A DNA stretch of 64,000 nt from an uncultured Lentisphaeria bacterium (GCA_949282305.1 CASDPB010000053.1:16710-80709), one strand, 5' to 3'. Counted from the stretch's first letter, positions 2,418-61,470 are shown. Notes: generated from the sequence alone by a model not told the origin. Numbers and translations are program-made.

Positions 2418-2626
2418 TTTCTGCGCAGGGCCTTCCTCACGGATATGGCAGACAGTTGCCATGTCCATTCCGGTAATTGAACTCTCTCCGACGCGGAAAT
2501 GTGCGCGGTCGGGGAGAATTCGCTTTTTTTATGTCTGACCGGGCATGGGGAGGAATCTTCCTCAAATCCGGTGGAATCACGCATTTTTTCTGCAATTATC
2601 CTCTGTCTGGATGTAATCTTTTATTG

Positions 2627-2649
2627 ATTTATGCAAAAATTGCATAAAT
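2627..2649. promoter_or_regulatory. Perfect 10-bp inverted repeat ATTTATGCAA-AAA-TTGCATAAAT (candidate operator or activator site)
   Basis: Read directly from the sequence. It lies about 25 bp upstream of the -35 box of the lacI-family gene promoter. A third TTGCAT half-site sits at 2681-2686 inside the promoter spacer. Confidence 0.35.
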
Positions 2650-2673
2650 TTCTAAAATTTTTCTAATAAACCC

Positions 2674-2701
2674 TTGACATTTGCATGATTTTGTTTATAA
2701 T
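2674..2701 (+). promoter_or_regulatory. Sigma-70-type promoter with consensus hexamers
   Basis: TTGACA (2674-2679), a 16-nt spacer, then TATAAT (2696-2701). It lies 52 nt upstream of ATG 2754 in an AT-rich intergenic region. Confidence 0.55.
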
Positions 2702-2753
2702 TTAAAGGCAGAGAGAAACAAAAAGAGAAATCCTGAGAGAGAGGTGATAATCC

Positions 2754-3734
2754 ATGTCTGTAGCAATGAAAGCAAGGGTGTCGAACTCTTCATCCGTGCT
2801 TGCTCAGGTGGCGAAGAAGGCGTGTGTTTCCTCCGGAACCGTGAGCCGGGTGTTCAACAACAGCGAACTGATTCCGGACGGTACCCGGAGCCGTGTGCTT
2901 TCCGCCGCCCGTGAACTGGGATTCCGTCCGCGCGTGGGCGTGAGAACCCCGCAGATCGCGCTGATTACCGAACCCCCGCAGAAAACCGTGATGGGCGGAT
3001 ATGTCAATACCATGACGCAGTATATCTGCCATGCCCTTTCCCGTTCCGATGCGACTGTCAGGATGATTACGGAGGACCGGATCGACAATTTGGTCAACTG
3101 CTGGTTCGACGGCATCATCGGCGTTGCGTGGGAGGAGCATACAATCGACATTCTGAAGGGGATGAAGAACATTCCCGTAATCTGGCTGAGCGACCTTTAC
3201 AAAGATTATTTTCACTGCATTTACATCGACGGAAGGGAAACGGGAAACCTTGCGGGGGATTACCTTGTCAATAAGGGACACCGCAGGATTGCCGTGATCC
3301 ATGACGTCGATTACGCCGGATACCTGCGTGCGGACGGAGTCGGGGAGGCGATGCGCAGAAAGGGAATCGACCCCGCGCAGAACCTGATGAAGATTCCGAA
3401 TTCCATGCCGCTGCATCTTGCCGTCAAACAGCTGATTGACGCGGAATGCACGGCCGTGTGGGTCACCGGTGAAGATATGAAGGTGCTGGAAGTGAACTGG
3501 CTGATCCAGGAACTGGCGGGGAAACGGGTGCCCGAGGACATTTCCCTGATGGGATTTGAAAACCCCGGAATTTCCGAATTCCTCTGTCCGTCGCTTACCA
3601 CGATTGCGTCGCCTCTGCACGAGATCGCGGAGAAGGCGGTGGAACTGGTTCTCAGCGATGATCTCGGGGAGCTCCGGCAGGTCAAGATGCAGGTTCGCCT
3701 GATAGAACGTAATTCCATTACAACCATATCATAA
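2754..3734 (+). CDS. LacI family transcriptional regulator
   Basis: 326 aa. N-terminal LacI-type HTH (VLAQVAKKACVSSGTVSRVFNNSELIPDGTRSRVLSAARELGFRP). C-terminal periplasmic-binding-protein-like sugar-binding fold (VPEDISLMGFEN). Confidence 0.9.
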   Translation: MSVAMKARVSNSSSVLAQVAKKACVSSGTVSRVFNNSELIPDGTRSRVLSAARELGFRPRVGVRTPQIALITEPPQKTVMGGYVNTMTQYICHALSRSDATVRMITEDRIDNLVNCWFDGIIGVAWEEHTIDILKGMKNIPVIWLSDLYKDYFHCIYIDGRETGNLAGDYLVNKGHRRIAVIHDVDYAGYLRADGVGEAMRRKGIDPAQNLMKIPNSMPLHLAVKQLIDAECTAVWVTGEDMKVLEVNWLIQELAGKRVPEDISLMGFENPGISEFLCPSLTTIASPLHEIAEKAVELVLSDDLGELRQVKMQVRLIERNSITTIS

Positions 3735-3747
3735 AAGGAAGGAAAAC

Positions 3748-5862
3748 ATGAAGTTCACACAACTCACATCCGTTTTGTCGGCAATGTCCGTTCTGTTTGC
3801 GCTTTCAGGCATGGGACTTGGAGCGCAGGAGCAGGCACAGGGCGATGCCGGGAAGAGTGTGGCGCTGGAGTATGCCAAGGAGCAGTACCAGCCGCGCTAC
3901 AAAGCGAAGGTCACATGGGAAGGGAAAGACCTGATCCTCAGAACCGACACAGCAGAGTGGGATTCCGGGGTCAAGATCAATCCTCCGAAGGGGCAGTTCC
4001 TGGATCTTTCCAAGGGAAAAGTGCTTGCCGCCGATGTGGAGAATCTTTCCAAGACGAATCAGATGCGTCTGACCATGCACATTTCCAGCGGCAGCCGCAA
4101 GGACAAGAATTTCCGGGAAGCCTACACTGGTATCGGATTGAACCCCGGTGAGAAGCGCACCATGCGCATGTATCTGCCGCACAAGGCGATTTTTGAAGTC
4201 GGCAAGGATGCGCGCAACCTGAAGAATCCGCTCGACACGGACAAGATCAATGCCATTGAATTCAAGATGATCTGGCCTTATGAAGCGGGCAAGAAGGATC
4301 TGGCATACTGCCGTATTTCCAATCTCCGTCTGGAAGGCGAGCCGGAATATTCCAAGAAGATTCCGGCGGACAAGTATCTGCCCTTCATCGACACCTACGG
4401 GCAGTACAAGCATGGCGAGTGGGCGGAAAAGATTCATTCCGACGAGGATCTCAAGAAGAATCACGAAAAGGAACTTGCCGAACTGGAAAAGGTTTCCGCT
4501 CCGGAGGAGTGGGATCGTTTCGGCGGCTGGAAGAACGGCCCCAAGCTGAAGGCGACCGGATATTTCAGAGTCTCGAAATTCCAGGGCAAATGGTGGTTCG
4601 TCGATCCGGAAGGACGCCTCTTCTGGTCTGCGGGAATTGACGTGCTCCGCACTCACACCGACGCCACGCAGGGGAAAAAGCATCCGCAGTGGTTCTCGCA
4701 GCCCGTTCCCGCGGATGGAACGCTGCCGTTCACGCACTGGAACCTCCAGAAGAAATACGGCAAGGAAGATTATGTGGAGGATTTCTACAAGGTGCTCAAC
4801 AAGCGCATGACGGCGTGGGGCATCAACACCATCGGAAACTGGGGCGACAGAAGGCACATGCTCATGGGCGAGAAACCCTATGTCCTGTCTCTCTGCGACA
4901 ATGACCGCGACCTTCCGAAGTTCAAGGAAGTCGAAGTGAAAAACGGCGAGACCAAAATCAAGAACAGCCGTGTCAAGTTTTACGATGTGTTCGATCCGCA
5001 GTTTGAAGACCTGATGGGCAATATGCTTGCGAACCGCGCCGCGACCGATCCGATCGTGAAGAAGTCCATCACCGATCCGATGTGCATCGGCTATTTCGTT
5101 GACAACGAACTCCAGTTCGGCAATATCATGAAGGCTGTCATGAAGGCGCCCGCGGAACAGCCCGCGAAGGTGGAGTTCATCAAGGACCTGAAAGCCAAAT
5201 ACAAGGATTCCGTGGAGGAATTGAACAAGGCGTGGAATACGAAGTTCTCCACATGGGAGGACGTCGCAAACAATACTGTGACTCCCAAGGGCAAGGGATA
5301 CCGCACGGACGAGCGCGCGTTCTTCAAGAAGTTCGTGAACGAATACTTCCGGATCTGCCGCCAGGGAATCAAGAGCGTCGCTCCGCACAGACTCTATCTC
5401 GGATGCCGCTTTGTCGGATTCCGCAATGCGGGTGCTGTCTGGGAGGCTTCCACGAAACATTGTGACGTTTCCAGTGTCAATTCCTATGCGAACAGCATTG
5501 CGAACACGAATCGCGGCGACTTCCGTGACCGTCCGGTGATTATCGGGGAGTTCCACTTCGGAACCTATGACCGCGGCATGTTCTCCAACAGCCTGATGCC
5601 GCAGTACTCGCAGGAAGACCGCGCCGTCTCCTACAAGAGATACATGCAGGGAGCGCTGGTGCATCCGAACTATGTCGGAGCTCATTACTTCCAGCTCCGC
5701 GACCAGCCGCTGACCGGTCGCTATGACGGTGAAGGCTATCAGATCGGATTCGTCGACGTGGCGGACACTCCGTATCCGGAGATGACGAAAGCCGCGAGAG
5801 AAGTCGGCGAAAACATGTATCAGTACCGTGTAAACGGCAAACTTCAGAATGAGATGAAGTAA
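3748..5862 (+). CDS. Secreted glycoside-hydrolase-like protein (N-terminal beta-sandwich plus clan GH-A-like TIM barrel; family not assignable by eye, possibly GH50/GH42-like)
   Basis: 704 aa. RBS AAGGAAGGA before ATG 3748. Signal peptide MKFTQLTSVLSAMSVLFALSGMGLGAQE. TIM-barrel-type motifs GINTIGNWGD, FVDNELQFG (candidate acid/base NE) and VIIGEFHFG (candidate nucleophile E). Confidence 0.6.
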   Translation: MKFTQLTSVLSAMSVLFALSGMGLGAQEQAQGDAGKSVALEYAKEQYQPRYKAKVTWEGKDLILRTDTAEWDSGVKINPPKGQFLDLSKGKVLAADVENLSKTNQMRLTMHISSGSRKDKNFREAYTGIGLNPGEKRTMRMYLPHKAIFEVGKDARNLKNPLDTDKINAIEFKMIWPYEAGKKDLAYCRISNLRLEGEPEYSKKIPADKYLPFIDTYGQYKHGEWAEKIHSDEDLKKNHEKELAELEKVSAPEEWDRFGGWKNGPKLKATGYFRVSKFQGKWWFVDPEGRLFWSAGIDVLRTHTDATQGKKHPQWFSQPVPADGTLPFTHWNLQKKYGKEDYVEDFYKVLNKRMTAWGINTIGNWGDRRHMLMGEKPYVLSLCDNDRDLPKFKEVEVKNGETKIKNSRVKFYDVFDPQFEDLMGNMLANRAATDPIVKKSITDPMCIGYFVDNELQFGNIMKAVMKAPAEQPAKVEFIKDLKAKYKDSVEELNKAWNTKFSTWEDVANNTVTPKGKGYRTDERAFFKKFVNEYFRICRQGIKSVAPHRLYLGCRFVGFRNAGAVWEASTKHCDVSSVNSYANSIANTNRGDFRDRPVIIGEFHFGTYDRGMFSNSLMPQYSQEDRAVSYKRYMQGALVHPNYVGAHYFQLRDQPLTGRYDGEGYQIGFVDVADTPYPEMTKAAREVGENMYQYRVNGKLQNEMK

Positions 5863-5956
5863 AACTGCTCCGGGCAGCTCCGGGATTTCCCGGAGCGGTC
5901 CGGAATAACAGAAAGTGCTGTCGCGGCAGAAAACAAAGATATTCGGGAGAGAAAAA

Positions 5957-6853
5957 ATGAAGACATTCAGGCAGATTCTCAAGGAACGTTTTTCCCGGAA
6001 CCGGGCAAGTAGCACACAAAGAGAGGAAAAAAGCGGAATGCTGGAAATGAGGCGGGACAGAGGGGAGTTCACCCTGATAGAGCTCCTCGTGGTAGTTGCT
6101 ATTATAGCAATTTTGGCGGCAATGCTGCTCCCCGCGCTGAGCAAGGCGAGAGACAAGGCAAGAGATATTTCCTGTTTGAACAATCAGAAGCAGATGGGAG
6201 TGTTGATGGCAATGTACGCGGGAGAGAATCAGGACAAACTGCCGGCTTACACGGATAATATTGAAAGCGGCAGAGGCAAATGGCAGGATATGATTTTTGC
6301 TCTGTATGATCCTAAGACATATTACTCCGTCAGCAATCCGCGGGATCGCGATTTCATCCATTATGATGATCGCCGGGGCAGCAGTGCCACACTGCGGCCT
6401 TATGGTATTTTTGCATGTCCTTCCCAGCCTCTGCGGGCGGGCAAAGATACTTCGGAAGCCGGAGGCACGAAACATTATCTGGCAAACAAGTATATTTCCA
6501 ACAACACCCCGTCGGGTACTTGGAGTACCAGCAATCCGAATGATGAGCGCAACAAATACGCCACTCGTCTTCTGACGCGGATTAAAAACCCTTCGTCTGT
6601 GATGCATGTCTGCGACGGAGACCGCGGAACGGAGAAATATGAAGTGGCGATTCACATGAAGAAGTTCATCGGCGGCAATACCGGTGCTTCTGATGCGTAT
6701 GCCAACATCAATTTCGGCGGACCTTACAGACATTCGAGCAAACGCGGTTTGAACACTCTTATGGCTGACGGTCATGCCAAGCCGACGCTGGCAAAGGATA
6801 TTCCCACCGGCTATGACAAGCCGGGCGGAAAATTCTGGTGCGGCAATAACTGA
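5957..6853 (+). CDS. Prepilin-type N-terminal domain protein (DUF1559 / H-X9-DG-like pseudopilin paralog), copy 1
   Basis: Contains [47 protein letters not shown] and the C-terminal motif [20 protein letters not shown]. The start is uncertain. Candidates are ATG 5957 (RBS GGGAGAG), ATG 6038 or 6047 (short leader typical of prepilins), and GTG 5915 (ORF track). Confidence 0.85.
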
Positions 6854-6991
6854 GTTTTCGAGTTTTCGACAGTGCTGTTTCAGAGGCGGCGGATGGGGAC
6901 GCAAACGCCGCCTCTGGAACTGGACAAAAATATAGAGGGAAATGGGAAAGTTGCAAGAGGAATAATAAAAAACGGGATTCGGAGGATGAAT

Positions 6992-7792
6992 ATGAGAGTG
7001 CATTCACAGGAAGTTTTTTGGGGAATTCGGATGAGTCATGTTGAAGATTCGAGGAGAAACAGAGGGAATTTTACCTTGATAGAGCTCCTCGTCGTGATTG
7101 CGATCGTCGCCATTCTTGCGGCGATGCTGTTGCCCGCTTTGAACAAGGCGAGAGACAAGGCGAAAGACATCAGCTGTATGGCGAACATGCGTCAGCTCGG
7201 GCTTCTGATGAACTTTTACACGGACAACAACAACGGGCAGTTCCCGAAAGCGAACGGGCTTTTAAACAGCGGTCCCGGAAGCTGGAGCGGAAGCGGACGC
7301 TGGCAGGATGGACTGTATGCCATGAAGACCAATAAGACGCTCGCAAACAGACTGCACTGGCAGGCGCAGGACAACACCACGCTGACCCGTCCTTATGACG
7401 TCTTTGCCTGTCCCGCTTCGAGAGATATGCCCTGGAACAGCGATGGCGTCTATGGTTTCATGGGGCATTACCTGATTAATTCCTACATCGGCAACTATGG
7501 AATGGACGCATGGGCGAAGGAATATGCCGCATTCAATGTCAAATCCGTGAGACAGCCCTCCAGGACAATGGAGCTTATTGACGGAGCATCGGAGAGGCGG
7601 ACTGACGGCACTTCCCCGTGCTGCGACACCAAATCCCAGCTTACCATAAATGGCGGAAAATATCGCCACCAGGCAAATACAGGGGTGAACGTTCTCTTTA
7701 TCGACGGACATGCGGAAGCCATGACTCACAACAAGATTCCGACCAATGTCTTGGTAAGCGACGGAACACCTTTCTGGGGCAACAGGAAGTAA
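6992..7792 (+). CDS. Prepilin-type N-terminal domain protein (DUF1559 / H-X9-DG-like pseudopilin paralog), copy 2
   Basis: Contains [47 protein letters not shown] and the C-terminal motif [20 protein letters not shown]. Start candidates are ATG 6992 (GGAGG 6 nt upstream), ATG 7031 and GTG 6872. Confidence 0.85.
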
Positions 7793-7941
7793 TGTTCCCT
7801 TCTGCCGGGAGAAGGACGTCGCAAGTCCGAAGCACCGCGTCCTTCTTCCGTATGAAAGCATAAGGATTTTTCAGCTCAGCAGTTTTATTTTGTGGTCATT
7901 ATGAATATAATAAATTAAAAGACAAGGGAAAGTTTTTAATT

Positions 7942-10230
7942 ATGAGTTTTGCTAACTGGTGCGTCATGCTGATTCCTCTGATCGGGATCCTCGGTCTTGC
8001 CGTATATTCCCGGAAATACGTGCGCGGCGTGGCGGATTATCTGGCGGCGGGACGTGTCGCCGGGCGTTATGTGATCTCCGTAGGGGATTTGTCCACAATG
8101 CTGGGTGTAATTACCGTGATTGCCATGGTGGAGCAGCAGTACCAGTGCGGTTTTGCGCTGAACTTCTGGAACCACATCATCATGCCGATTTCCATCGTCA
8201 CTTCACTGACCGGCTACTGTCTTTACCGTTTCCGCGAAACGAAGGCGATGTCGATGGGGCAGTTCCTTGAAATGCGTTACAACCGCGCGTTTCGTATCTT
8301 TGCGGCGTCCCTCCGGACGATTGCCGAGATGCTGACGAACGCAATCGGGCCTGCCGTCGCCGCGCGCTTCTTCATTTATTTTCTGGGACTGCCTCACGCT
8401 GTCACAATCTTCGGCGTGTCGATTCCCTCCTTTATTCTGATTCTGATTCTCTGTCTGATTCTCGCCATGGTCGTGATCTGGCCCGCCGGACGGGTTTCCC
8501 TGATCGTGACCGACTGTTTCCAGGGGCTTATCAGCTATCCGATTTTCGTGATTTTCGTCTTCTTCATTCTCGGTGAATTTTCTTGGTCCGCCCAGATTGC
8601 GCCCGTCATGTCGAACCGCGTTCCGGGGGAAAGTTTCCTGGATCCCTATGACATCAAGGATCTCCGGGACTTCAATCTGTTCGCACTGGTGGTGACTGTG
8701 ACCAATAACATACTGAACCGCGCAAGCTGGATCGGCAACGATACCAGCGGCTGCGGAAAAAGCCCGCATGAGCAGAAAATGGCAGGCATCATCGGGTCGT
8801 GGCGGAACGGTTTCGGCTTCCTGATGTGCATGATTATTGCAATCGGCATGATTACGCTGATGGGGCATAAGGACTTTGCCGCGCAGGCGAAGTCGATCCG
8901 CAATGAGCTTTCCGCCAAAGTCGCCGCCGAGACAGTGGAGGATTCCGCGGTGCGCCGGCAGGTGGTCGCGGCGCTTGAGTCGCAGCCGGAGATCGTCTTC
9001 CCCGAAGGCGAGAAGTTTTCCCGTGTGCACAATCCCGACACGGAGTATCTGAGCACTGCGGCGGATATTATCACCCGGCAGGAAAACGGCAATGCGGTTT
9101 ATCAGGGATTCCGCACTCTCTATTATCAGATGATGATGCCGGTCGTCCTCCGCAACATCCTGCCGAGTTTCATGATCGGTCTGATTGCCCTGCTGATGAT
9201 TATGCTGATGCTCTCCACGGATGATTCGCGTATTTTCAACGCATCGTCCACGATCGTGCAGGACATCATCATGCCGTTGAAGAAGGAGCCTCTGACTCCA
9301 AAACAGCATTTATGGTATCTGCGATTCCTGTCGCTGGGGGTTGCGGTGTTCTTCCTCTGCGGTTCGATCTTCCTTGCGCAGATGGACTACATCAACATGT
9401 TTCTCACGATTATGACAAGCATCTGGTGCGGCGGCGCGGGACCGGTGATGATCGGCGGTCTTTACAGCCGTTTCGGCACGACGGCGGGCGCGTTCGCCTC
9501 GCTGATCGGCGGCGCCGTGATTTCCGTCGGCGGCATCGCCATGCAGCAGAACTGGGCGGAGCGCATCTATCCGTGGCTGGCGCGTCTCGGTTACTGTGAT
9601 TCGATTGACTATATGCTTCAGACGATTTCCGCGCCGTTCTCCCCGTATATCGTATGGAAAATGGATCCGCTCAAGTTCCCGATCAATTCCATGGAGATTT
9701 TCTTCATTGCGATGGTGACGGGAATCCTCTGCTATGTGATCGTGTCGCTGATCACTTTCAAGAAGCCCTACAATCTGGATCAGATGCTTCACCGCGGCAT
9801 TTACAGCATCGACGGCGAAAAACGCATCAAGTCTCCCTGGACCTGGCGGAATGTGTTCAGCAAGCTGATCAACATCACGCCCGAATACACCCGCGGAGAC
9901 AAGATCATCGCATGGTCGGTGTTCTTCTACAGCTTCGTCTACCAGCTGCTGATCATGTTTGTGATCGTGGTGATATGGAACGCCATTTCCCCGTGGCCGA
10001 AGGAGTGGTGGAGCACTTACTTCTATTTCGGAAGTATCGTCGTCGCCTGCATTGTCGGTATTATTTCGACCGTGTGGATGCTGATCGGCGGATGTATTGA
10101 CCTGCGCCGTCTCTTCGTCGATCTTGCCGCGCGGATTGACAATCCTCTGGACGACGGGCGTGTCGAAGGGAATATCTCCCTGATGGACCGTCAGAAGATC
10201 GAAGCGATCAAGGAAAAATCAGAACATTGA
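7942..10230 (+). CDS. Sodium:solute symporter (SSS) family transporter, unusually long (762 aa)
   Basis: Polytopic membrane protein. The N-terminus (LAVYSRKYVRGVADYLAAGRVAGRYV) resembles the SSS-family signature around the conserved LAGR. Many hydrophobic segments run throughout. It is followed by a strong terminator. Confidence 0.7.
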   Translation: MSFANWCVMLIPLIGILGLAVYSRKYVRGVADYLAAGRVAGRYVISVGDLSTMLGVITVIAMVEQQYQCGFALNFWNHIIMPISIVTSLTGYCLYRFRETKAMSMGQFLEMRYNRAFRIFAASLRTIAEMLTNAIGPAVAARFFIYFLGLPHAVTIFGVSIPSFILILILCLILAMVVIWPAGRVSLIVTDCFQGLISYPIFVIFVFFILGEFSWSAQIAPVMSNRVPGESFLDPYDIKDLRDFNLFALVVTVTNNILNRASWIGNDTSGCGKSPHEQKMAGIIGSWRNGFGFLMCMIIAIGMITLMGHKDFAAQAKSIRNELSAKVAAETVEDSAVRRQVVAALESQPEIVFPEGEKFSRVHNPDTEYLSTAADIITRQENGNAVYQGFRTLYYQMMMPVVLRNILPSFMIGLIALLMIMLMLSTDDSRIFNASSTIVQDIIMPLKKEPLTPKQHLWYLRFLSLGVAVFFLCGSIFLAQMDYINMFLTIMTSIWCGGAGPVMIGGLYSRFGTTAGAFASLIGGAVISVGGIAMQQNWAERIYPWLARLGYCDSIDYMLQTISAPFSPYIVWKMDPLKFPINSMEIFFIAMVTGILCYVIVSLITFKKPYNLDQMLHRGIYSIDGEKRIKSPWTWRNVFSKLINITPEYTRGDKIIAWSVFFYSFVYQLLIMFVIVVIWNAISPWPKEWWSTYFYFGSIVVACIVGIISTVWMLIGGCIDLRRLFVDLAARIDNPLDDGRVEGNISLMDRQKIEAIKEKSEH

Positions 10231-10236
10231 TTTCTG

Positions 10237-10315
10237 CCGGACCGGCAGGCAAGGGAATGCGGCACTCTCTCCCCCCAAAAAACGCATTCCCGAACCGCCG
10301 GTCCGGTTTTTTTTT
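10237..10315 (+). terminator. Rho-independent terminator (two-tier hairpin plus T9)
   Basis: CCGGACCGGC (10237-10246) pairs with GCCGGTCCGG (10297-10306). An inner stem pairs GGGAATGCG with CGCATTCCC. A run of 9 T follows (10307-10315), 7 nt after the transporter stop. Confidence 0.75.
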
Positions 10316-10494
10316 GCTCTCTGCCGGTCTTCTGCGGAGACGGCTGGAGTAAATGACGGGTGACAGCGGGAGCGCGCGAATCGGCAGCGGAGTGCGTTCC
10401 CCGCCGACCGGGGAGAGACGGCTTGAATATTCCTGCGTTTCAAAGCTGAACCGGATGTGCGTATGAATTGCAAAACATCCGCCGGGAGTCAGAC

Positions 10495-17347: not shown

Positions 17348-17423
17348 GGCGGCTTAGCTCAGTCGGTAGAGCGATGGAATCATAATCCACAGGTCACTGG
17401 TTCGAACCCGGTAGCCGCCACCA
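17348..17423 (+). tRNA. tRNA with anticodon CAT (elongator Met, or Ile2 if lysidine-modified), CCA encoded
   Basis: The cloverleaf was folded by hand. Acceptor stem GGCGGCT/AGCCGCC. D-arm GCTC-AGTCGGTA-GAGC. Anticodon loop ATCATAA. T-arm ACTGG-TTCGAAC-CCGGT. A73 followed by CCA. The G1-C72 pair argues against an initiator tRNA. Confidence 0.9.
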
Positions 17424-36224: not shown

Positions 36225-38270
36225 TTAATCCTTGCTAAGAATATCTGAGCAGATGTTTTTGCCACGGAAAATATAACTTCCCGTATTACTGTTGACCGTT
36301 TTCCCGGTCAGGGAATGGAAACCCGGCGGCAAGGTGATTTCTGCTTCCGCTATGCCGGGACCGATACCGCAGATCAATACCCGCTGTGCTCCGTGCCCGT
36401 CATCAAATCGTGCGGCGTAAACCTCCCCGGAAATCGTTTTTACCGGTAACTGTTCAGGTGGAATATCAGACAGTATGAATGGTTCCAGTTTACGTAGATT
36501 TCGGGCGATGCGACAAACTTGCGGCCAGCGTTTTTTGAATTGATTCGGATCTGGACCTTGGAGCAGATCAAAGTAGGAATACATGATGAAGCCTTTGGAA
36601 CCGAAAATTGCTTCCAGCAAACACATAGACATGATTTCTTCTTCTGTTGGATAGCGAAATTCGGTCAGATAGACTTTCAGGTTGTTGACTGCTGTCGGAC
36701 GGTAATTGCCGACATTGAAGATTTGCGGGACGGTCCAGAGCGGCATTCCGTTATGAGAATTGCACAATACACGCCGGGCACTTTTCATAAAACGCAATAC
36801 TTCTGACATATTTTGGATATCAGCGCGAGCAATTGGGTAGGGGTCAATTCCGAGAATATCGTAACCGGAAGCATAATATTGCAGATTTTCTTCCTGGAAG
36901 AGTACAGAAAGAGTCGGATGTCCGGGGTCCAGACGATTGACCAGACGGCGCCGTTCCAGCAGGGCTTTAATCCGATTCGTATGAAGTTCATCACATATAT
37001 ACCAAGCCAATAGTGCCGGATGACTTTTCCAGCGTTCAACGATTGCCTGTATGATTCGGTCTGCCCCCTCGTATCCTTGCCATTTCAGCCATTTGGAATC
37101 GTAGGGTTCAAAAGGGTAGACCTGAGTAAATGAGAAGATCAGTTTCAGCCTGTTTTCCGCCAAGCAATCCATTACGGCATCAATCGCTTCCAGACCGTTT
37201 TTACCGGGATACTTCAGTTCCATGCTGTTGTAGGATAGTACACAGTTGAAACCGCCATTGGCAATCATTTTTATCTCTGTCGGACTCATCTGCCCCGTAT
37301 AAAGTCCTATAGGCATGAACGGTTTCCCGTTTACGATAGTACGTCCGAGCTCATCTATTGAAACTCTATTCGCCTGTTTTCCTGCAATAATTTGCAGAGG
37401 AATATTTTTTTCAGCCAGAATATAACAGTTTGCTGTATCAAGCAGCTTCATATGCAATTCCATTGTTCCTTTCGGCAACTTGCCGGGATGAATTAAAATC
37501 CGATTGTTATTTATTGGTGAAATCGTATGGAATAATGAATTGCCGTCTTTTCGGATATCCACCCATGCCTGATATATGGGGGATCGCCGCTGTTTATAAT
37601 CGAATATTCCCACGACGAAAGAAGATAGTTCAAGTGTTGCAGTATTGTCACAGTCAATTATTTCCTGTATCGGCATGATTAATCCGGTATACCAGTTACC
37701 CCCGTTTTCTTCATATAGAAAGGCATCATCAAATATTGCGGTTCCGGTCGTTCCGGGTCGTAGATAAAGTGCAATGGAATAATAATAGTCCGGATTCGCA
37801 ACAAAAGTTTGTTCCAGTTTGGTCCAGTCGGAGTTCCCCCGCAGGTTCTTCAGATAATAGCCACTCACATATTTTCCTGTTTTACGATCGCTCCATTCAA
37901 GACAGACACTTGCGCCTTCTCCTTGGACTGTATGTGTTTTTACCCACATGCCGAAGCGGTATTTGACGCCGGGCTTCAAATTGCGAAGTGGAATTCCCGG
38001 TAGAATATATGAGTCCGGAGCAGTTCGCCGATAGAGCAGAGCATTGGTGTAACTTCTGCCGATTCCTTTTTCAACGCTGATCCCGTGTTTACCGATGTTT
38101 TGCCAACCATGTTCTCCTTTTTCAAAATCTCCGTTTGGAAACAGATTGATTCGTTCTTTCAACTGACTGGAAGATAATCTCTTATAATTCTCCAATGTAA
38201 TTTCTTCCGCAGTCGTGTTCAGGATGGATAACAGAGTAGCCAGAATTATCATGTAAGTGGAAGTTTGCAT
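36225..38270 (-). CDS. Secreted CBM4/9-like plus TIM-barrel glycoside-hydrolase-like protein (family unknown)
   Basis: 681 aa with low G+C. Hydrophobic N-terminal signal [25 protein letters not shown]-like module (NGDFEKGEHGWQNIG...AIFDDAFLYEE). A TIM-barrel-like region (GFNCVLSYNS, LAWYICDELH, ILGIDPYPI). Its start overlaps the upstream stop by 1 nt (TAATG). Confidence 0.55.
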   Translation of the reverse strand: MQTSTYMIILATLLSILNTTAEEITLENYKRLSSSQLKERINLFPNGDFEKGEHGWQNIGKHGISVEKGIGRSYTNALLYRRTAPDSYILPGIPLRNLKPGVKYRFGMWVKTHTVQGEGASVCLEWSDRKTGKYVSGYYLKNLRGNSDWTKLEQTFVANPDYYYSIALYLRPGTTGTAIFDDAFLYEENGGNWYTGLIMPIQEIIDCDNTATLELSSFVVGIFDYKQRRSPIYQAWVDIRKDGNSLFHTISPINNNRILIHPGKLPKGTMELHMKLLDTANCYILAEKNIPLQIIAGKQANRVSIDELGRTIVNGKPFMPIGLYTGQMSPTEIKMIANGGFNCVLSYNSMELKYPGKNGLEAIDAVMDCLAENRLKLIFSFTQVYPFEPYDSKWLKWQGYEGADRIIQAIVERWKSHPALLAWYICDELHTNRIKALLERRRLVNRLDPGHPTLSVLFQEENLQYYASGYDILGIDPYPIARADIQNMSEVLRFMKSARRVLCNSHNGMPLWTVPQIFNVGNYRPTAVNNLKVYLTEFRYPTEEEIMSMCLLEAIFGSKGFIMYSYFDLLQGPDPNQFKKRWPQVCRIARNLRKLEPFILSDIPPEQLPVKTISGEVYAARFDDGHGAQRVLICGIGPGIAEAEITLPPGFHSLTGKTVNSNTGSYIFRGKNICSDILSKD

Positions 38271-39013
38271 TAGAAGTACATCCTTATTCCGTTTTCACTC
38301 CAAAATATGAATGGTTTGGTTAAATCAAATTCCCGTCCTATTGGGGATAGTTCTATGCCATGTCTGGATTCCACATGCAAATCTCCGTACGTAGCATTGA
38401 CACTTTGCGAGTGGCGTGCATGCATTGCCGCCGAAGTGTCTAATGAAGTTTTCTGTGCGCGAAACCACCAATTCTGTAACTGATTGGCGTTCCTAGTGTC
38501 AGCGAAAATTATTTGCCTGGTCGGATTCAGCAGTTTGTTTATCGCAATATTGCAGGTGGTAGTATCATTTGCCGCAGTGTGTCCTCCTCCTCTGTAATAA
38601 AGAAAGGTATTCAGACCGTAGCCACATGGTTCAGTTCCATTCAAGGTTGATTCCTGGGTGTAATAAGGCGGATAGGTCGGGCAGGCAAATAGTTTATATG
38701 CGCCTGATCTCAGATAATCGTCATTGTCGTCAGCTTTAGATACTGAACCATAATAACCGTTTCTGATTAACAGATTATACCAGAATGAATTACTGTCTTT
38801 ATATATATATTTACCGGCAAACGTGACATCGTTATTATCATTGAGATACATTCCGGTTATTGTTCCGATTTGTTTCAGGTTGCTGACACATTTGATGCTC
38901 ATAGCCTTTGCCTTGGCTTTGTTTAATGACGGCAATAGCAAAGCAGCTAAAATGGCGATGATCGCAATTACGACAAGCAGTTCTATCAATGTGAAATTTT
39001 TCCGTTTCCCCAT
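38270..39013 (-). CDS. Prepilin-type N-terminal domain protein (DUF1559 / H-X9-DG-like pseudopilin paralog), copy 3, divergent
   Basis: 247 aa with very low G+C. It starts [50 protein letters not shown]. The C-terminal motif is a variant, [18 protein letters not shown] (GDLH instead of DGH). Confidence 0.85.
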
Positions 39014-39063
39014 TCAGCAGTCCTCCGTTTTTGTTGAATTTTATTTTTCCTGATTTGCTGTTT

Positions 39064-40152
39064 TCAAATTTCGTCACAAGTCTGCGGCGCTTCCTTCAGT
39101 TCCGCTACGGATTCACCTTCCCTGATAGTCAGGCCGATATAATCAATCGAATTCATTTCCGGATCGTTCCTGCGGCGTTCAAAAAGATTCCATGCCAGCT
39201 CCATGATCTTTGCCGTGGAGTTCACGACTGAAGTCGGCTTCGGGTGCAGATCATCCCGTTCCAGACCGTCCGAGGAGATGAGGGATATGTCCCTGCCGAT
39301 TGTCAGCCGCCGCTGTTTCATATACTCATAGACATTCTTCAGGAACCAGTCGCTTACCACCAGAGCCGTCGGTTTCGGGGAAGAGGCAAACATGGCGTCC
39401 AGACGCTCGCAGAGCTGTTCCCGTTTCTGGGAGTAGTGTATGACCCACTCCGGACGGACCGTTAAACCGTTTTCGCTCATGAAGCGGTAGAAGGCTTCAC
39501 GGCGCAGCAGGTCTGTGAGGCTGGCAAAGCCCAGATCCACCGTATGGATGAACCCGATCCTGCGGTGTCCGTGCCGGAACAGATACTGCAGCTGCATTTC
39601 GACCAGCTCCGGCGCATCAATGACTGCCGGTCCCGTATTCGGATAATACCGCGGCAGCACTACCGCATAGTTGATTCCGTGATGATCGAAAATTTTCTGT
39701 ATGTCATTGTGATGGGGCATCATCAGCAGGGCGTTCCTGATATTGTATTTGGTTATGATCTCCTCATATTCTGATATCGGCGCATACCAGCTGATCCGGT
39801 GAAAGCGCGGAGTGAGCTGATGCCGGGCGGCACCGGCAAGAAAATGGTTGATGAGCTCCATCGCAAAATTGTCCGTCTCGACGTAGCTGATTTCGGAACA
39901 GGCGACCAGGTCGATGATATGAAGGCTTTCTTCATGAATCCTTTCCGTCAGGTAAATGCCGGAGCGGGCACGGGTTTCCAGAACTTTGTCGTGCTTCAGC
40001 TTGCGGATGGCGTTTTCCAGCACATTGCGTCCCAGCTGAGATTCCTGCTGCATCCGGCGGAGCGGCGGCAATGCTTCTCCGGCGTTTAAATTCACCAGAC
40101 ATTGCCGTATATACTCTTCCGCCTGTCGATTCTTTATGTCTCTGATGCTCAT
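39064..40152 (-). CDS. Transcriptional regulator: GntR-type winged HTH fused to a LacI/PBP1-type sugar-binding domain
   Basis: 362 aa. The N-terminus (LPPLRRMQQESQLGRNVLENAIRKLKHDKVLETRARSGIYLTE) is GntR-like. The C-terminal part resembles the LacI effector domain (ALVVSDWF..., IGRDISLISSDG). Confidence 0.7.
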   Translation of the reverse strand: MSIRDIKNRQAEEYIRQCLVNLNAGEALPPLRRMQQESQLGRNVLENAIRKLKHDKVLETRARSGIYLTERIHEESLHIIDLVACSEISYVETDNFAMELINHFLAGAARHQLTPRFHRISWYAPISEYEEIITKYNIRNALLMMPHHNDIQKIFDHHGINYAVVLPRYYPNTGPAVIDAPELVEMQLQYLFRHGHRRIGFIHTVDLGFASLTDLLRREAFYRFMSENGLTVRPEWVIHYSQKREQLCERLDAMFASSPKPTALVVSDWFLKNVYEYMKQRRLTIGRDISLISSDGLERDDLHPKPTSVVNSTAKIMELAWNLFERRRNDPEMNSIDYIGLTIREGESVAELKEAPQTCDEI

Positions 40153-53064: not shown

Positions 53065-54573
53065 TCAGACGCTGACATGTTCCCCGTCCTTGCCGCATAC
53101 CTGCTTCAGCAGTTGGGCGACGCCGGATTCAAACAGCCGCTGCCACTCCGGACCCAGGAGGCATTCCGTTACCTCATAGCCGCCTCCGTCATATAATTCC
53201 GCAGGCGGGCCGTAATGGAGATACCCGTTGGTATACCCGACAGTCAGTGTCGGTGAAAACGGACTCATTTTCTTAATGTCCTGCCCGATCTGTGTGAGCA
53301 GCTCCGCCGCGGAGGTCACAATGGCGGCGTTGTTGATTCTGATGACCTGGATTTCCGTGGCGATCGTCGTTTCTCCGCTGGCGGCATTGAGTCGCTGATG
53401 TTTCTCCAAAGTCGCCAGGTCGTCCTGAATCTGCGCCAACTCCTCCATCGCGGCAATGTTGCTCAGATATTTTTCGATATTCATGCGGTTGAGGTGATCC
53501 ATATCCCGCCATCCGGTGTATCCGTCCGCATCAGCCTGCAGATATTGAAAGGCGTCTGTCAGCGGATAGTCCGGCTCCAGCCGGTAATGCAGCAGCAGAA
53601 GAAGAAAATTCTTGAAGTTCAGCGGACAGTAATGCAGTTGTTCCAGCAATTCCTGCTGCCGCCGTCGCAGTGCGGCAGTTTTCTCGTCGACGTCGGTGCG
53701 GCGCGGAAGCCGCAACGTTGCAACTGCGCAGCGGACGGCTGCCTCCGGGGTTGTTTGTATTGCCGAAGCTGCCGGGACAATCTGCAATGCGATCAGTTTT
53801 GCCGGTGTTTTGACGTCGCGCGGATGCAGGAAGTCCTTGAACCCGCGGTCGATGACATCCCCGGCGCATCCCTGCAGAAAGAACGCCGTGGCTCCGTTTC
53901 CAAGCAGCTGTTCCAGTGTTGCGGAGATTTCACCCGGGAAGTTCGCCGTGAGACTGCCGTAACAGTCCCCGAACAGCGGATGACAGCCGAAGTTGTATAC
54001 CAGTGCCAGAGGCGTGCCGTCTGCACGATCCACCCGGATCAGCCCGATTTCATTGTCGATCGGGCGCACAGCCTCAACCCGGCAATCCGCCGGAGTCGGA
54101 TTCGTGTGGCGGATGGCGCAGTCCTTTCCAGTTTTCAGCTTCAGATTGCGGTTGATCGCCACGGGGGGGAGTTCCGCTTTGCCGAAACCGATGCGTGCGG
54201 GAACCAGACGGCTCAGGGCTTCACTGCATGCCGCTGTGATTCTCCGCAGCTGTTCCGCGTCATCGCAGAGCAGCTGCCCCGCCGGGTGCGTGTGGGAGGC
54301 GTTGACAACCACGCCTTCCGCGGGGATGTTCCATTGCCGCATCAGGTATTCGCGCAGAGCGGGAACCAGGCCTTCCCCGCCGTCCGGCAGAATGCCGTCG
54401 CTGATGGCGCGTCCGCCGACTGCCGTAACGTCTATGGTGACGAAGACAAGCGTCTGTCCGTCCGCCTGCAGGACCAATATTCTGGCATAGAGCGGATCCA
54501 GCACTTTTCCCGATGGGTGCGGATTTGTCAATTCGGTTCTGGCTGTTGCCGCCATCATTGTCTGTGAGTTCAT
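53065..54573 (-). CDS. Hypothetical hydrolase, neutral/alkaline ceramidase N-terminal-domain-like
   Basis: 502 aa with no signal peptide. LDPLYARILVLQADGQTLVFVTIDV and VVNASHTHPAG resemble the ceramidase_alk N-domain pattern (weak, from memory). The start abuts the upstream stop (TAAATG). Confidence 0.45.
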   Translation of the reverse strand: MNSQTMMAATARTELTNPHPSGKVLDPLYARILVLQADGQTLVFVTIDVTAVGGRAISDGILPDGGEGLVPALREYLMRQWNIPAEGVVVNASHTHPAGQLLCDDAEQLRRITAACSEALSRLVPARIGFGKAELPPVAINRNLKLKTGKDCAIRHTNPTPADCRVEAVRPIDNEIGLIRVDRADGTPLALVYNFGCHPLFGDCYGSLTANFPGEISATLEQLLGNGATAFFLQGCAGDVIDRGFKDFLHPRDVKTPAKLIALQIVPAASAIQTTPEAAVRCAVATLRLPRRTDVDEKTAALRRRQQELLEQLHYCPLNFKNFLLLLLHYRLEPDYPLTDAFQYLQADADGYTGWRDMDHLNRMNIEKYLSNIAAMEELAQIQDDLATLEKHQRLNAASGETTIATEIQVIRINNAAIVTSAAELLTQIGQDIKKMSPFSPTLTVGYTNGYLHYGPPAELYDGGGYEVTECLLGPEWQRLFESGVAQLLKQVCGKDGEHVSV

Positions 54574-56616
54574 TTATTCACCTTCTGTCTCATTTGTTGA
54601 ATAATGTATTTTTTCTCCGTTCGGTAACGTGTAATCAAGGGTAAATTGCAAACCGTTGATCTTGAGTGGTTCCAGACGATACTGCTTCCAGCCGGGGAGC
54701 GTTGGCATGAGTCCGCACAAATGCCGGACAATCGCATTGGCGGGAGAGGCTCCCCATGGGTGTGCCCAGCTCATGTTTGCCTTCTGGCTGCAGTTCCATG
54801 CTTCTGTGGTGATGGTGGCGCCCGCCTTCAGCATGTTGCGCCAGGAACACGGACCGTCGTCGAGCAAAAGGGCGAGTGCCTGTTCCGCACGCCCGTATTC
54901 AAACAGGACATCCAGCACATATTGGGCATTGTAGATGCCGCACGCCATGCCTTTGGAGACAATGAAATCTACAACGTTTTCACAGTCCTCCGGGGGAACC
55001 ACCCGGTTCCATAATGCCCATACATTGGTATGCAGGGACGAATGGCCGCTTCCCCGGTGATCGACGAACAGACGCCGCTCCGGGTTCCAGAATGCCGAGC
55101 GGATGACAGGGAGCATGGCATCCGCTGCCGGGGTGAAACAATCTTCTTCACCGATTTCCTTTGCCAGAAACGCCAGTTTGCGCAGGTTTCCATATAGAAG
55201 GAAATGCGGAATTGCCACATAATCGGCATCAATTTCACATCCGTCGCGCAGGTTTATCGGCCAGTCGACGATAATTTCGAGGGGGAAGCGTTTCACGAGT
55301 CCGTTTTCCAGCAGATGGAGATAGGACGCTTTCCGCACCAGCTCCTTCCAGTTCTCCCGGATTGTTTCCGCATCGGCGGTGTGCATGTAATATTCATAGT
55401 ATACCGGAATCATCATCTGCATCCACTCGCATGGCCAGGTCGGATGGGAGATCATATATTTCACGCTGCGTTTGGCTGCCGGAGCCGCGCTGTCAACGGC
55501 GAAATTGGCGAGCATGTTCACATAGGAGTCCGCTTCATAGCAGATCCGTTCCCGTGTAAAACAGTCCGTATAAAGATCCATTGCCGTCGCCTCCACCGTA
55601 TAACGGCATAGTTCCCAGATGCGGTTCAGCTCCGGATTGCTGGAAACAAAGCGGACCGCGTCCGATCGGAACGGTGCGTGAATCACCCGGCGCCGGAAAT
55701 TTTCCCGGCTCAGCTCCCCGGGGAAGCCATGCACTTCCGCATAGCGGAATTCCCGGACGCCGAAATGCGACAGTGTCTGCCCCGCGCGTGCGAAGTGCCA
55801 CAGTTCCTGATAACAGGTATCAGCTCTCAATTGGAATCTGACACATTTGTCGTTCATGAGTTCCTCGCCCAGACGCAGTTCGACGTAAGCCGCTTCCGGC
55901 GCGGTCATTTCAATCTGCGCGATGGCTTCCCTGCCGAAGTCAATGAGGAAGGAACCATTGCCGAGCGGAACGATGCGCTCCGGAGATTCCGGTTCGATCC
56001 GGTAGTTCCATTCCGCCTTTTCCGGGACGCCTTCCCACTGTTTCGGGGTGCACTCTTCCCAGGAGGAGTCGTCGAAACCGGCGTTCATCCAGCCTTCCGG
56101 TTCAAATTCCCCCTGGAGATGTTCAAATAATTCTCCGGGGCCGATGTCTCCCTTGAAGTAACTGCTGATTTCGGGACGTGTCCAGCAAACCGGGGACAGG
56201 AACTCATTGGCACTGCATTGGCGGAACGCGGAAGCCGAATCCGCAATGACCTGTCCGCCCGCCCGGATCTCGATGGCGATTCCCTGTTGTTCCATGCGCA
56301 TGAGACATGCGATGACGTGTTTCCCGGAGGCGAGGCTTCCTGCCGGAAAGATGTGTTCAACCCGGTTGCCGTTGCGAATGCCGCGGAACGGACCGACTCC
56401 CAGCCTTTTCCCGTCCAGAAACAGGTGATACTTGATGAAGCTGCCTCCCATCAGCCAGTTGCCGTCGTTGCCGTCGCTTCGGAGCTTCTGGCAGTAGGCG
56501 CAGACATAGGAATGGGCGTCCGCTGTCACCGCAATGGTAACGGGGCCCGTCCCCGTGTCCGTCTCAAATTCTCTGCGGCAGAACTTCTGTCCCGGACCGC
56601 CGATAAAATAACGCAT
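54574..56616 (-). CDS. Alpha-L-rhamnosidase-like (GH78-type six-hairpin) glycoside hydrolase
   Basis: 680 aa. The C-terminal region TTEAWNCSQKANMSWAHPWGASPANAIVRHLCGLMPTLPGWKQYRLEP resembles the conserved end of bacterial GH78 catalytic domains. The assignment is by eye. Confidence 0.55.
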   Translation of the reverse strand: MRYFIGGPGQKFCRREFETDTGTGPVTIAVTADAHSYVCAYCQKLRSDGNDGNWLMGGSFIKYHLFLDGKRLGVGPFRGIRNGNRVEHIFPAGSLASGKHVIACLMRMEQQGIAIEIRAGGQVIADSASAFRQCSANEFLSPVCWTRPEISSYFKGDIGPGELFEHLQGEFEPEGWMNAGFDDSSWEECTPKQWEGVPEKAEWNYRIEPESPERIVPLGNGSFLIDFGREAIAQIEMTAPEAAYVELRLGEELMNDKCVRFQLRADTCYQELWHFARAGQTLSHFGVREFRYAEVHGFPGELSRENFRRRVIHAPFRSDAVRFVSSNPELNRIWELCRYTVEATAMDLYTDCFTRERICYEADSYVNMLANFAVDSAAPAAKRSVKYMISHPTWPCEWMQMMIPVYYEYYMHTADAETIRENWKELVRKASYLHLLENGLVKRFPLEIIVDWPINLRDGCEIDADYVAIPHFLLYGNLRKLAFLAKEIGEEDCFTPAADAMLPVIRSAFWNPERRLFVDHRGSGHSSLHTNVWALWNRVVPPEDCENVVDFIVSKGMACGIYNAQYVLDVLFEYGRAEQALALLLDDGPCSWRNMLKAGATITTEAWNCSQKANMSWAHPWGASPANAIVRHLCGLMPTLPGWKQYRLEPLKINGLQFTLDYTLPNGEKIHYSTNETEGE

Positions 56617-56710
56617 GTTCCAACCTCTTGTGCTTTTGAATCAGATTTTATCTTTCATTGTTCTGTTTTTATTCAGCCCCGGCAATCCCGCCGGAGCTGA
56701 TGAACGGTTC

Positions 56711-60538: not shown

Positions 60539-60561
60539 AACAACTCCTGATTAAAAATGTA

Positions 60562-61437
60562 TCACTCAACACCGGTTTTGCAAGTAATGGTTCCGGAAAT
60601 GAACTTCTGCGCTTGAAGTCCTTCGGCATGACCGTCAAACAGCAGGGCATTCGTCTTTCCGCGCGCCAAGGCAACAGTAGCAGTGGATACAAGCCATACC
60701 CTTCCATCTCCACCTCCGTGACGGTAGGAAAACCACTGGTAATTCTGCGCGACTGCATAATCATACGCCAGACTGTCTGCGCAGAAAATGGCCTGAGAGG
60801 CTGATTTTACCTGATTTGCGCGTTTTGCGCCGCCACCCGATGCTGTCCAGCCGGTAAGATAGCCGTTGGATTCATTGCTCCATACCAGGCAGCAGTTGAT
60901 TGCGTAATGAGTTGCATAATAGGCCTCGCCGCCTACAATTGTGCCATTGATGGGTTTCTTTTCCGTAGGGCATACGAAGGTGGAGTTCTGGGTGGTGTTT
61001 TTTGAGGTATTCTGGTCGTAATAAGTGACGCCGTAATTGGTTGTTGCGTTGCATACGGGAGCTCTGCCTGCCAGCACATTGTACCATCCGGTCGTCCAGT
61101 GCATATTGGCACCGCTTGTAGTCGGCTGATTGCCCAGTATGATCCAATCGTCAAAATCTCCGGAGTACATTGCCTGGGCGGAACCGATGGTTTTCAAATT
61201 GTTCAGGCATTTTGCATTCTGGGCCATTGCGCGCGCCTTGTTCAAAGCGGGAAGAAGCATGGACGCTAAAATTGCTATAATAGCAATTACTACGAGGAGC
61301 TCTATCAAGGTGAAAAATCCTGTTTTTCCCCTGCTGAGCAGGAACGGATTTTGACGATCCCGGCACTGCCGGAATGAAGCTCCCCTCAGAAGCATTTTTT
61401 CATGGGGAGTCCCATCAATCTGAAAAACTTTCTGCAT
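60562..61437 (-). CDS. Prepilin-type N-terminal domain protein (DUF1559 / H-X9-DG-like pseudopilin paralog), copy 4
   Basis: Contains [48 protein letters not shown]. The C-terminal motif YRHGGGDG...[11 protein letters not shown] has a longer spacer. Start candidates are ATG 61437 (AGGAAAGGA upstream) and ATG 61395. Confidence 0.85.
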
Positions 61438-61470
61438 TTCCTTTCCTTTCTGTCATTTATCATTGTAAAT

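Follow-up and report, generated by a model that had tools for sequence, protein, structure and literature searches.

We analyzed a window of 64,000 nucleotides (nt) from an uncultured Lentisphaeria bacterium (GCA_949282305.1, CASDPB010000053.1:16710-80709), in which two genes for type-IV-pilin-like proteins of the DUF1559 family, P1 and P2, lie in a cluster that we call cassette A. Close homologues place the window in the Victivallales within the Lentisphaeria, with UBA11452 as the nearest metagenome-assembled genome (MAG). Cassette A consists of five open reading frames (ORFs) on the plus strand, which encode a LacI-family repressor, an exported glycoside hydrolase of family GH50, P1, P2 and a Na+/solute symporter (Table 1); an ORF check of the window bore out these genes and their coordinates as described in an earlier note on this DNA. 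The cassette extends from 2593 to 10316 and leads from an operator palindrome via a sigma-70 promoter and the five genes to a terminator with a U tract. Nucleotide homology to L006 and L018 (labels such as L001, L003 or L006 denote the loci fetched from relatives) covers the stretch from about 2593 to about 10240, and the sequence on either side of it is unrelated, which argues for a discrete 7.7-kb module with operator and terminator as its borders. A divergent gene pair upstream, encoding a PocR/AraC-type regulator (166-990, minus strand) and a flavin adenine dinucleotide (FAD)-dependent oxidoreductase (PF12831; 1113-2417, plus strand), lies outside the conserved module because the homology to L006 and L018 begins only at about 2593.

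The candidate LacI operator is a palindrome (ATTTATGCAA-AAA-TTGCATAAAT) that is found once in the window, where chance alone would yield 0.08 matches, and a search of the window for further copies upstream of P1, P2 and the symporter gene found none. An extra TTGCAT half-site is located within the promoter spacer (about 2682-2689). L003 and L006 retain the operator core TGCAAAAATTGCA upstream of lacI together with the spacer motif TTTGCATG, although the sequence around them has diverged. The repressor combines a LacI helix-turn-helix with a sensor of the periplasmic-binding-protein (PBP) type, and together with the predicted palindromic operator at the promoter this is the arrangement that would be expected for an operon under a LacI-family repressor. 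The gaps between the genes (13 nt between lacI and the GH50 gene, 138 nt between P1 and P2 and 149 nt between P2 and the transporter gene) are those given in the earlier note, and the GC hairpin without U tract that it had placed at 5877-5896 could be confirmed, as could the terminator after the transporter gene, which carries a run of nine U (U9). A U tract is found at this last hairpin only, and the three hairpins at the internal junctions have none. We infer from these signals that the genes of cassette A are co-transcribed as one operon. The internal hairpins could stabilize the RNA or act by attenuation and thereby adjust how strongly GH50, P1, P2 and the symporter are expressed relative to one another. 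An Rfam scan of the window returned one tRNA only, and the intergenic hairpins match no RNA family.

The protein encoded downstream of lacI has a plain Sec signal peptide and matches four solved GH50 beta-agarases (including 4bq2, 5z6p and 6xj9; E 4e-80 to 2e-76), with Aga50D (4bq2) as the best match (E 3.7e-80). The alignment spans the barrel as well as the region N-terminal of it, and both catalytic glutamates (in VDNE and GEFH of the query) align with the catalytic pair of Aga50D, as is required of a GH50 member. GH50 also holds a beta-galactosidase of Victivallis vadensis and beta-1,3-glucanases (PMC11079163), so that more than one substrate is conceivable. The symporter passes the Pfam SSF cut-off with a match confined to residues 396-524 and scores below the cut-off of TIGR00813; its predicted fold is of the LeuT type, as in the solute:sodium symporter (SSS) family. 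A Foldseek search with its AlphaFold2 (AF2) model (predicted local distance difference test, pLDDT, 75.9) returned hSGLT1 (E 5e-11), SiaT (TM 0.80), SGLT2 and vSGLT, and a profile search found SiaT (5nv9) too. The subfamily of about 765 amino acids (aa) spans the Planctomycetota-Verrucomicrobiota-Lentisphaerota (PVC) group, with 56-62% identity in Opitutaceae, Lentimonas, Kiritimatiellia and Phycisphaerae. In public records it is widely labeled as "sodium:pantothenate symporter" or "Na+/proline symporter", but these names are probably wrong and a sugar is the likely substrate. The subfamily also has a helical insertion of roughly 90 aa (residues ~310-395) outside the Pfam SSF match, and the Coraliomargarita member of the subfamily adjoins sulfatases and a beta-helix protein.

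P1 and P2 share 37% identity. Both exceed the gathering cut-off of DUF1559 (PF07596; 23.3 bits) with 32.5 and 25.4 bits, respectively, and those of the N-terminal methylation motif (PF07963, TIGR02532); the start of P1 is ambiguous (5957, or 6038 according to the public assembly). Of the family assignment in the earlier note, the prepilin-type N-terminus and, by Pfam, DUF1559 hold, but H-X9-DG proper does not: with 12.3 bits for P1 and 15.2 bits for P2 both stay below the cut-off of TIGR04294 (19 bits), and the spacing is H-X11-DG instead of H-X9-DG, so that only the term "H-X9-DG-like" is appropriate. The leaders end in RDRGE (P1) and RNRGN (P2), each followed by FTLIELL. Phe at position +1, Thr at +2, Leu at +3, Glu at +5 and a pair of cysteines are invariant across 111 homologues. 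Thus, Phe or Met at +1, Glu at +5 and the hydrophobic helix alpha-1, which define type IV pilins and pseudopilins, are all found, but the Gly or Ala at -1 is missing; P1 has Glu and P2 has Asn instead. Upstream of the short basic leaders both genes carry in-frame N-terminal extensions (5957-6037 and 6992-7069; in P2 MNMRVHS.EVF...), which are kept across divergent alleles; the leaders may be unusually long, about 26-37 aa, or the extensions may contain regulatory sequence that is conserved.

The AF2 model of P2 (pLDDT 93.8) resembles a pilin-like lollipop with a long helix alpha-1 (residues 16-66) and a small alpha/beta head. A profile of the family matches helix alpha-1 of solved type IV pilins and of GspG with E-values down to 6e-17; homology of P2 to solved pilins is restricted to this N-terminal helix, and a Foldseek search of the model against the PDB yielded no match for the head. 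The Pfam name SBP_bac_10 implies a solute-binding protein, and a statement in the literature likewise describes the DUF1559 head as being of the solute-binding type. We rejected this reading for P2, as its model predicts a helix with a small head and not a two-lobed protein, and no binding protein in the PDB matched it at E<0.5 in Foldseek. The searchable literature holds no functional study of DUF1559, H-X9-DG or Lentisphaerae prepilins, so the statement of the earlier note that the function of this family is not established still applies.

A comparison with relatives revealed which genes stay together. The order LacI-GH50-P1-P2 recurs in six other assemblies (L003, L006, L018, L090, L091 and L092) in several genomic contexts. 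The symporter gene follows this core in four of the six and is absent in L003 and L092, which argues that the pilin-like pair is coupled, as judged by gene order, to the enzyme and the regulator and not to the importer. V. vadensis has a LacI gene with three pilin-like genes in tandem behind it, next to GH42 genes. The position of P2 directly upstream of the symporter gene in the window had led to the idea of a hand-over, in which the DUF1559 head would bind the released sugar, similar to a binding protein, and deliver it to the symporter. We consider this highly improbable, since the symporter is missing from two of the conserved cores, the model of P2 is of the pilin type, and the usual partner of the family is a large exported protein, with transporters as rare neighbors (see below). 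In addition, we know of no SSS transporter that depends on a binding protein.

The gene neighborhoods of the family at large were examined in 80 loci around members in species-representative genomes, with members marked by a hidden Markov model (HMM) of the family. The Lentisphaerota set contains 33 loci with 45 pilin-like blocks and 84 directly adjacent genes, and 105 genes located five or more genes away in the same loci served as distant background. Peripla_BP_3 is encoded by 13 of the 84 adjacent genes and by at most one of the 105 distant genes (Fisher p=1.3e-4). GntR domains occur in 11 adjacent genes (two of the distant ones), LacI in two and AraC in four, and other adjacent genes encode DUF4838, Laminin_G_3, GH42-like, CBM_4_9 and DUF6259 proteins. 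In 20 of 29 cases the downstream gene on the same strand encodes a protein of 600 aa or more, compared with 66 of 337 in the background (p=6.6e-8), and 18 of the downstream proteins have a signal-peptide-like N-terminus. In 17 of the 29 cases no more than 44 nt separate the pilin-like gene from this downstream gene, and some stop and start codons overlap. SSF transporters account for three of the 84 adjacent genes, and all three belong to copies of cassette A. Gene order in Lentisphaerota therefore has a recurrent unit of a putative sugar-sensing regulator, a pilin-like gene and a large, predicted exported protein, of which cassette B of the window (see below) is one example. Two such units, here with giant proteins, flank a member of the same symporter subfamily in L094, a Lentisphaerae MAG.

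Two further loci should be mentioned. On the minus strand of L006 (13453-18999), a GntR gene is followed by a pilin-like gene, the gene for an 810-aa Laminin_G_3 protein and then a gene for a second, 234-aa pilin-like protein, so that the exported Laminin_G_3 protein is flanked by pilin-like genes on both sides. In L001 (2626-6344), which lies on the same contig upstream of the window, the genes for an IclR regulator and a GH13 alpha-amylase precede two ORFs, one for a protein of 194 aa that faintly matches DUF1559 and one for a protein of 229 aa without Pfam match, which makes another pairing of an enzyme with a pilin-like gene.

The link between the family and regulators or carbohydrate-active enzymes (CAZymes) that the earlier note had drawn is therefore real: the core is conserved in different flanks and the enrichment among the neighbors of the family in Lentisphaerota is significant. 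The pattern is not seen in the 56 loci of Verrucomicrobiota and Planctomycetota, which have heterogeneous neighbors and few regulators, with Peripla_BP_3 in only two of 101. P1 and P2 might be generic paralogues, that is, interchangeable housekeeping subunits of a type II secretion system (T2SS) or type IV pilus, with CAZyme neighbors that merely reflect a CAZyme-rich genome. The heterogeneous neighborhoods in the other two phyla would fit such a view, as would the size of the family (47,077 clusters at 50% identity in a profile search with E<1e-30 and full-length similarity; 68-74 DUF1559 paralogues in each planctomycete genome). We regard it nevertheless as quite improbable, because the LacI-GH50-P1-P2 core moves together into different contexts, regulators and large exported proteins remain enriched when distant genes of the very same loci serve as the reference, and the junctions to downstream enzymes are short or overlapping.

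The residue at -1 sets the Lentisphaerota branch apart. Gly is found at this position in five of 110 close homologues; among the members in the analyzed loci it is present in four of 51 from Lentisphaerota, whereas 55 of 60 from Verrucomicrobiota and Planctomycetota carry Gly or Ala. Prepilin peptidases of the PilD type require Gly at -1 (rarely Ala). Therefore, the Lentisphaerota branch either has a peptidase of altered specificity or its proteins are not processed. In the latter case P1 and P2 could remain as uncleaved and unpolymerized anchors that are held in the inner membrane by their helix and, in the periplasm, assist specifically the enzyme that is co-translated with them as chaperone, scaffold or retention factor. 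The unconstrained -1 position and the lack of filament machinery nearby speak for such anchors, and the tight or overlapping spacing to the downstream enzyme suggests stoichiometric co-production. The strict conservation of Phe at +1 and Glu at +5, however, would be puzzling if the proteins were neither processed nor assembled, conservation of the enzyme should entail that of a specific partner interface, and the swapping of alleles with deep synonymous divergence described below is typical of exposed and not of periplasmic proteins. We thus think that anchors of this type are rather improbable.

A clear contrast within the module was observed between closely related strains. L006 and L018 are 99-100% identical at the nucleotide level over lacI, the GH50 gene, the symporter gene and both flanks, but identity drops to 55-89% over P1-P2, where the alpha-1 coding part is best kept and the heads reach 55-69%. 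In five close genomes protein identity is 96-100% for LacI, 92-99% for GH50 and 94-100% for the symporter, but 60-94% for P1 and 63-86% for P2. The alleles reassort independently: L006 and L091 share P1 (94%) and differ in P2 (63%), and L018 and L091 show the opposite pattern (P1 66%, P2 82%). For strains whose operons otherwise match at 99-100%, identity is no more than 63-69% in P1 and P2, and synonymous divergence (dS) there reaches 0.9-1.1, compared with 0.03 or less elsewhere. Over all comparisons dS is 0.8-1.4 in P1 and P2 compared with 0.01-0.3 in the flanking genes, and the ratio of nonsynonymous to synonymous divergence (dN/dS) of 0.15-0.30 argues that purifying selection is retained. 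The alleles are thus old lineages that were moved by recombination, and not decaying genes. The exchange at P1 and P2 is local, as L006 and L018 have identical copies (100%) of another pilin-like gene that is located a few kb from them. Gene conversion between paralogues is not favored as a source of the alleles: in their alpha-1 coding regions the four paralogues of the window reach only 66-79% identity at the nucleotide level, and no exact match between them exceeds 20 nt.

Old, divergent alleles of a filament subunit that are exchanged by recombination within a conserved backbone are known from the pilA allele groups of Pseudomonas aeruginosa. P1 and P2 resemble pilA in their divergent alleles within a conserved backbone, but differ from it as the variable genes are part of a catabolic operon and two adjacent genes vary and reassort independently. 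The variation of P1 and P2 is the pattern that one would expect of surface-exposed filament subunits under frequency-dependent selection, and it speaks against the idea that the two proteins contact the conserved GH50 protein or the symporter through an interface that is tight and specific. On the question of a pilus, the invariant Phe at +1 and Glu at +5 together with the hypervariability lean toward a surface filament, and the missing Gly at -1 leans away from canonical processing. No secretin, type IV filament ATPase, platform protein or prepilin peptidase is encoded by the scanned ORFs of the window, just as the earlier note had stated.

It has been reported that pilus genes are required for mucin uptake in Akkermansia and that glycans accumulate in the periplasm of Verrucomicrobiota (PMC12418764; PMC13174399). 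With these precedents P1 and P2 could form, or sit at the tip of, a retractile fiber whose heads bind the polysaccharide targeted by the operon and that pulls it to or through the outer membrane, followed by "selfish" digestion by a periplasmic GH50 protein and import of the product by the symporter, which comes closest to the interpretation in the earlier note. The invariant filament-type N-terminus, the hypervariability that fits an exposed fiber, the co-regulation by a sugar-sensing repressor and the plain Sec signal of the GH50 protein, which could be periplasmic, are all compatible with it. Nevertheless, glycan capture, the main alternative to the reading that we favor below, seems possible but unlikely to us. 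Neither Foldseek nor profile searches detected a lectin or carbohydrate-binding-module fold in the head of P2, the heads differ by 31-37% at an unchanged enzyme and so presumably an unchanged substrate, and the family associates with large exported proteins and not with transporters or outer-membrane channels. Moreover, the type IV pilin-like protein Amuc_1102 of MUL2, PilM and the other proteins of the Akkermansia mucin utilization loci (MULs) are likened to P1 and P2 by description and not by homology.

The reading that we favor, although we hold it with reservation, is that P1 and P2 are inducible, surface-exposed subunits of a type IV filament with machinery encoded elsewhere, and that they serve the exported enzyme in secretion or display. 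Cassette A would then be a self-contained, LacI-repressed glycan-utilization operon of gut-type Victivallales, in which one sigma-70 promoter guarded by the palindromic operator drives lacI, GH50, P1, P2 and the symporter gene. The GH50 protein would be exported and act as a retaining glycosidase of the beta-galactosidase or exo-beta-agarase type, and the released sugar would be taken up by the Na+ symporter with its SGLT/SiaT fold. P1 and P2 would be the outward-facing parts of a type IV filament or pseudopilus whose motor, platform and secretin are encoded at other sites; they would not serve the importer but the enzyme of their own operon, either by aiding its crossing of the outer layers or by holding enzyme and substrate at the surface. 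We propose that it is because of this exposure that the heads would be under diversifying selection and exchanged between strains by recombination.

Several points weigh against a filament that serves the enzyme. The exchange of Gly at -1 should block cleavage and hence assembly, and a search for the Walker-A motif of a filament ATPase within 10 kb of 103 pilin-like blocks (1.25 Mb) found none. Docking of the heads on the GH50 protein would demand their conservation at a GH50 protein that is 99% identical, but the heads vary, and an all-against-all BLAST of 36 large neighboring proteins revealed no common docking domain. Cassette A itself, with the enzyme first, larger gaps and hairpins, departs from the usual order of regulator, pilin-like gene and enzyme, and its transcription as one unit is deduced from sequence. 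Finally, the neighborhood counts are based on crude ORF calls in loci that were chosen by similarity to P2, and a few of these loci are mutually orthologous.

The earlier note had also stated that the arrangement of cassette A recurs twice more in the window, which is true only in a loose sense. Two further pilin-like genes between regulators or CAZyme-like genes are present, in cassettes B and C (Table 1), but neither has a transporter; both genes are below the DUF1559 cut-off and without TIGR04294 match, but were found by the family HMM. The triad of cassette B occurs in L096 (4878-8813) with the identical overlap, and here the pilin-like gene (57% identity) is more diverged than the enzyme (72%). 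The upstream regulator was swapped for an unrelated PBP-type regulator (32%), and an exact-sequence look-up of the cassette B regulator gave no record. Cassette C is probably a locus for a rhamnose-containing glycan. A GH2 glycosidase and a fused class II aldolase/short-chain dehydrogenase similar to rhamnulose-phosphate aldolase are encoded at 29968-33895 (minus strand), and these cytoplasmic-looking sugar enzymes have no adjacent pilin-like gene. The remainder of the window includes the single tRNA gene (17348-17420, plus strand) and housekeeping genes (gatA, pfk, glnA type III, gyrA, bamA, dnaB, ssb, pth, L25 and prs), which identify it as chromosomal DNA. Two minus-strand ORFs (33903-34685 and 23280-24260) were rejected as genes, since they have the appearance of non-coding shadow frames.

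Table 1. Positions of the features of cassettes A, B and C, counted from the first nucleotide of the window.
Feature	Position	Strand	Remarks
Cassette A: candidate LacI operator, palindrome	2627..2649	.	single copy in window
Cassette A: sigma-70-type promoter, TTGACA-16 nt-TATAAT	2674..2701	+	12/12 consensus positions; kept in L003 and L006
Cassette A: LacI-family repressor, 326 aa	2754..3734	+	Pfam LacI, Peripla_BP_3, Peripla_BP_1
Cassette A: exported GH50 glycoside hydrolase, 704 aa, Sec signal peptide	3748..5862	+	PDB GH50 matches
Cassette A: stable GC hairpin after GH50, without U tract	5869..5904	+	-31.5 kcal/mol, z -5.9
Cassette A: P1, DUF1559 type-IV-pilin-like, 271 aa (298 aa from 5957)	6038..6853	+	Pfam N_methyl, SBP_bac_10/DUF1559
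Cassette A: stable GC hairpin after P1, without U tract	6872..6925	+	-37.3 kcal/mol, z -6.1
Cassette A: P2, DUF1559 type-IV-pilin-like, 266 aa (alternative start 7031)	6992..7792	+	Pfam N_methyl, DUF1559
Cassette A: stable GC hairpin after P2, without U tract	7806..7850	+	-26.7 kcal/mol, z -3.6
Cassette A: Na+/solute symporter, 762 aa	7942..10230	+	Pfam SSF (PF00474) 27.2 bits, cut-off 22.8
Cassette A: intrinsic terminator, long hairpin then U9	10236..10316	+	-43.5 kcal/mol, z -5.4
Cassette B: regulator/pilin-like/enzyme triad	36225..40152	-	Pfam, family HMM
Cassette B: GntR-PBP regulator	39064-40152	-	
Cassette B: pilin-like gene	38270-39013	-	stop overlaps enzyme start
Cassette B: CBM_4_9 protein, 681 aa	36225-38270	-	
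Cassette C: whole, five genes as listed below	53065..63984	-	
Cassette C: GH-like protein, 837 aa	61471-63984	-	without Pfam match
Cassette C: pilin-like gene	60562-61437	-	
Cassette C: CBM_4_9/DUF6259 protein, 1275 aa	56711-60538	-	
Cassette C: GH78 rhamnosidase	54574-56616	-	
Cassette C: 502-aa protein	53065-54573	-	faint ceramidase-like match

Both the DUF1559 family and this type of operon are of known kinds, and a comparison with established systems helps to place their combination. P1 and P2 share with the T2SS pseudopilins (GspG/GspH) and type IV pilins the short basic leader, Phe at +1, Glu at +5 and helix alpha-1 with a small alpha/beta head, and the export of folded hydrolases by the T2SS fits the exported enzymes beside genes of this type. 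They differ in the lack of Gly at -1 and in a head without detectable solved homologue, and unlike the genes of gsp or pil clusters they are located in catabolic operons under sugar repressors, as many paralogues with one or two per enzyme operon. By their PF07596 scores and the names of their homologues (DUF1559 or H-X9-DG) P1 and P2 belong with the family defined by PF07596 and TIGR04294, but unlike its members in Planctomycetota and Verrucomicrobiota they have H-X11-DG, the Lentisphaerota proteins lack Gly or Ala at -1, and the context of regulator, pilin-like gene and exported enzyme is confined to Lentisphaerota.

A likeness to the MULs of Akkermansia muciniphila can also be drawn by analogy, since pilus-type genes of a PVC bacterium would in both cases be tied to the acquisition of glycans and not to motility; the MULs, however, are one or two dedicated loci and do not provide a pilin-like gene per enzyme operon. 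Cassette A shares with the Sus-like polysaccharide utilization loci (PULs) of Bacteroidota the build of a substrate-inducible cluster, in which a regulator stands together with exported glycosidases, accessory proteins of the envelope and an importer. In contrast to these PULs it has neither a SusC/SusD pair nor a TonB-dependent transporter, and the Pfam results of the window contain no gene of this type; its accessory proteins have a pilin fold and its importer is a Na+ symporter of the inner membrane. The label "Sus-like" is thus to be taken as an analogy only. In the searchable literature we found neither the arrangement of regulator, pilin-like gene and enzyme in Lentisphaerota, nor the loss of Gly at -1 with Phe at +1 and Glu at +5 kept, nor allele swapping inside a conserved catabolic operon.

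The DUF1559 pilin-like proteins are among the largest uncharacterized families of the PVC group, with dozens of copies in planctomycete genomes, and the gut Victivallales offer three handles on them: a conserved triad, a lost peptidase site with the assembly residues kept, and the swapping of alleles in an operon that is otherwise 99% identical. This opens the questions of how large enzymes for glycan degradation are exported or displayed in bacteria that lack Sus systems, and of which selective pressure makes the surface of a gut commensal vary. A more far-reaching idea, which we put forward as a speculation, is that Lentisphaerota follow a principle of "one pilin per enzyme": each sugar-inducible operon would supply its own type IV filament subunit, processed without Gly at -1, by which the large enzyme that the operon exports, or the substrate of this enzyme, is linked to a common filament machine on the surface of the cell, and the exposed heads would be kept hypervariable by recombination under pressure from phages or the host. 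If true, "one pilin per enzyme" would be a pilus-linked counterpart of the Sus-type loci and would provide a first function for the DUF1559 family.

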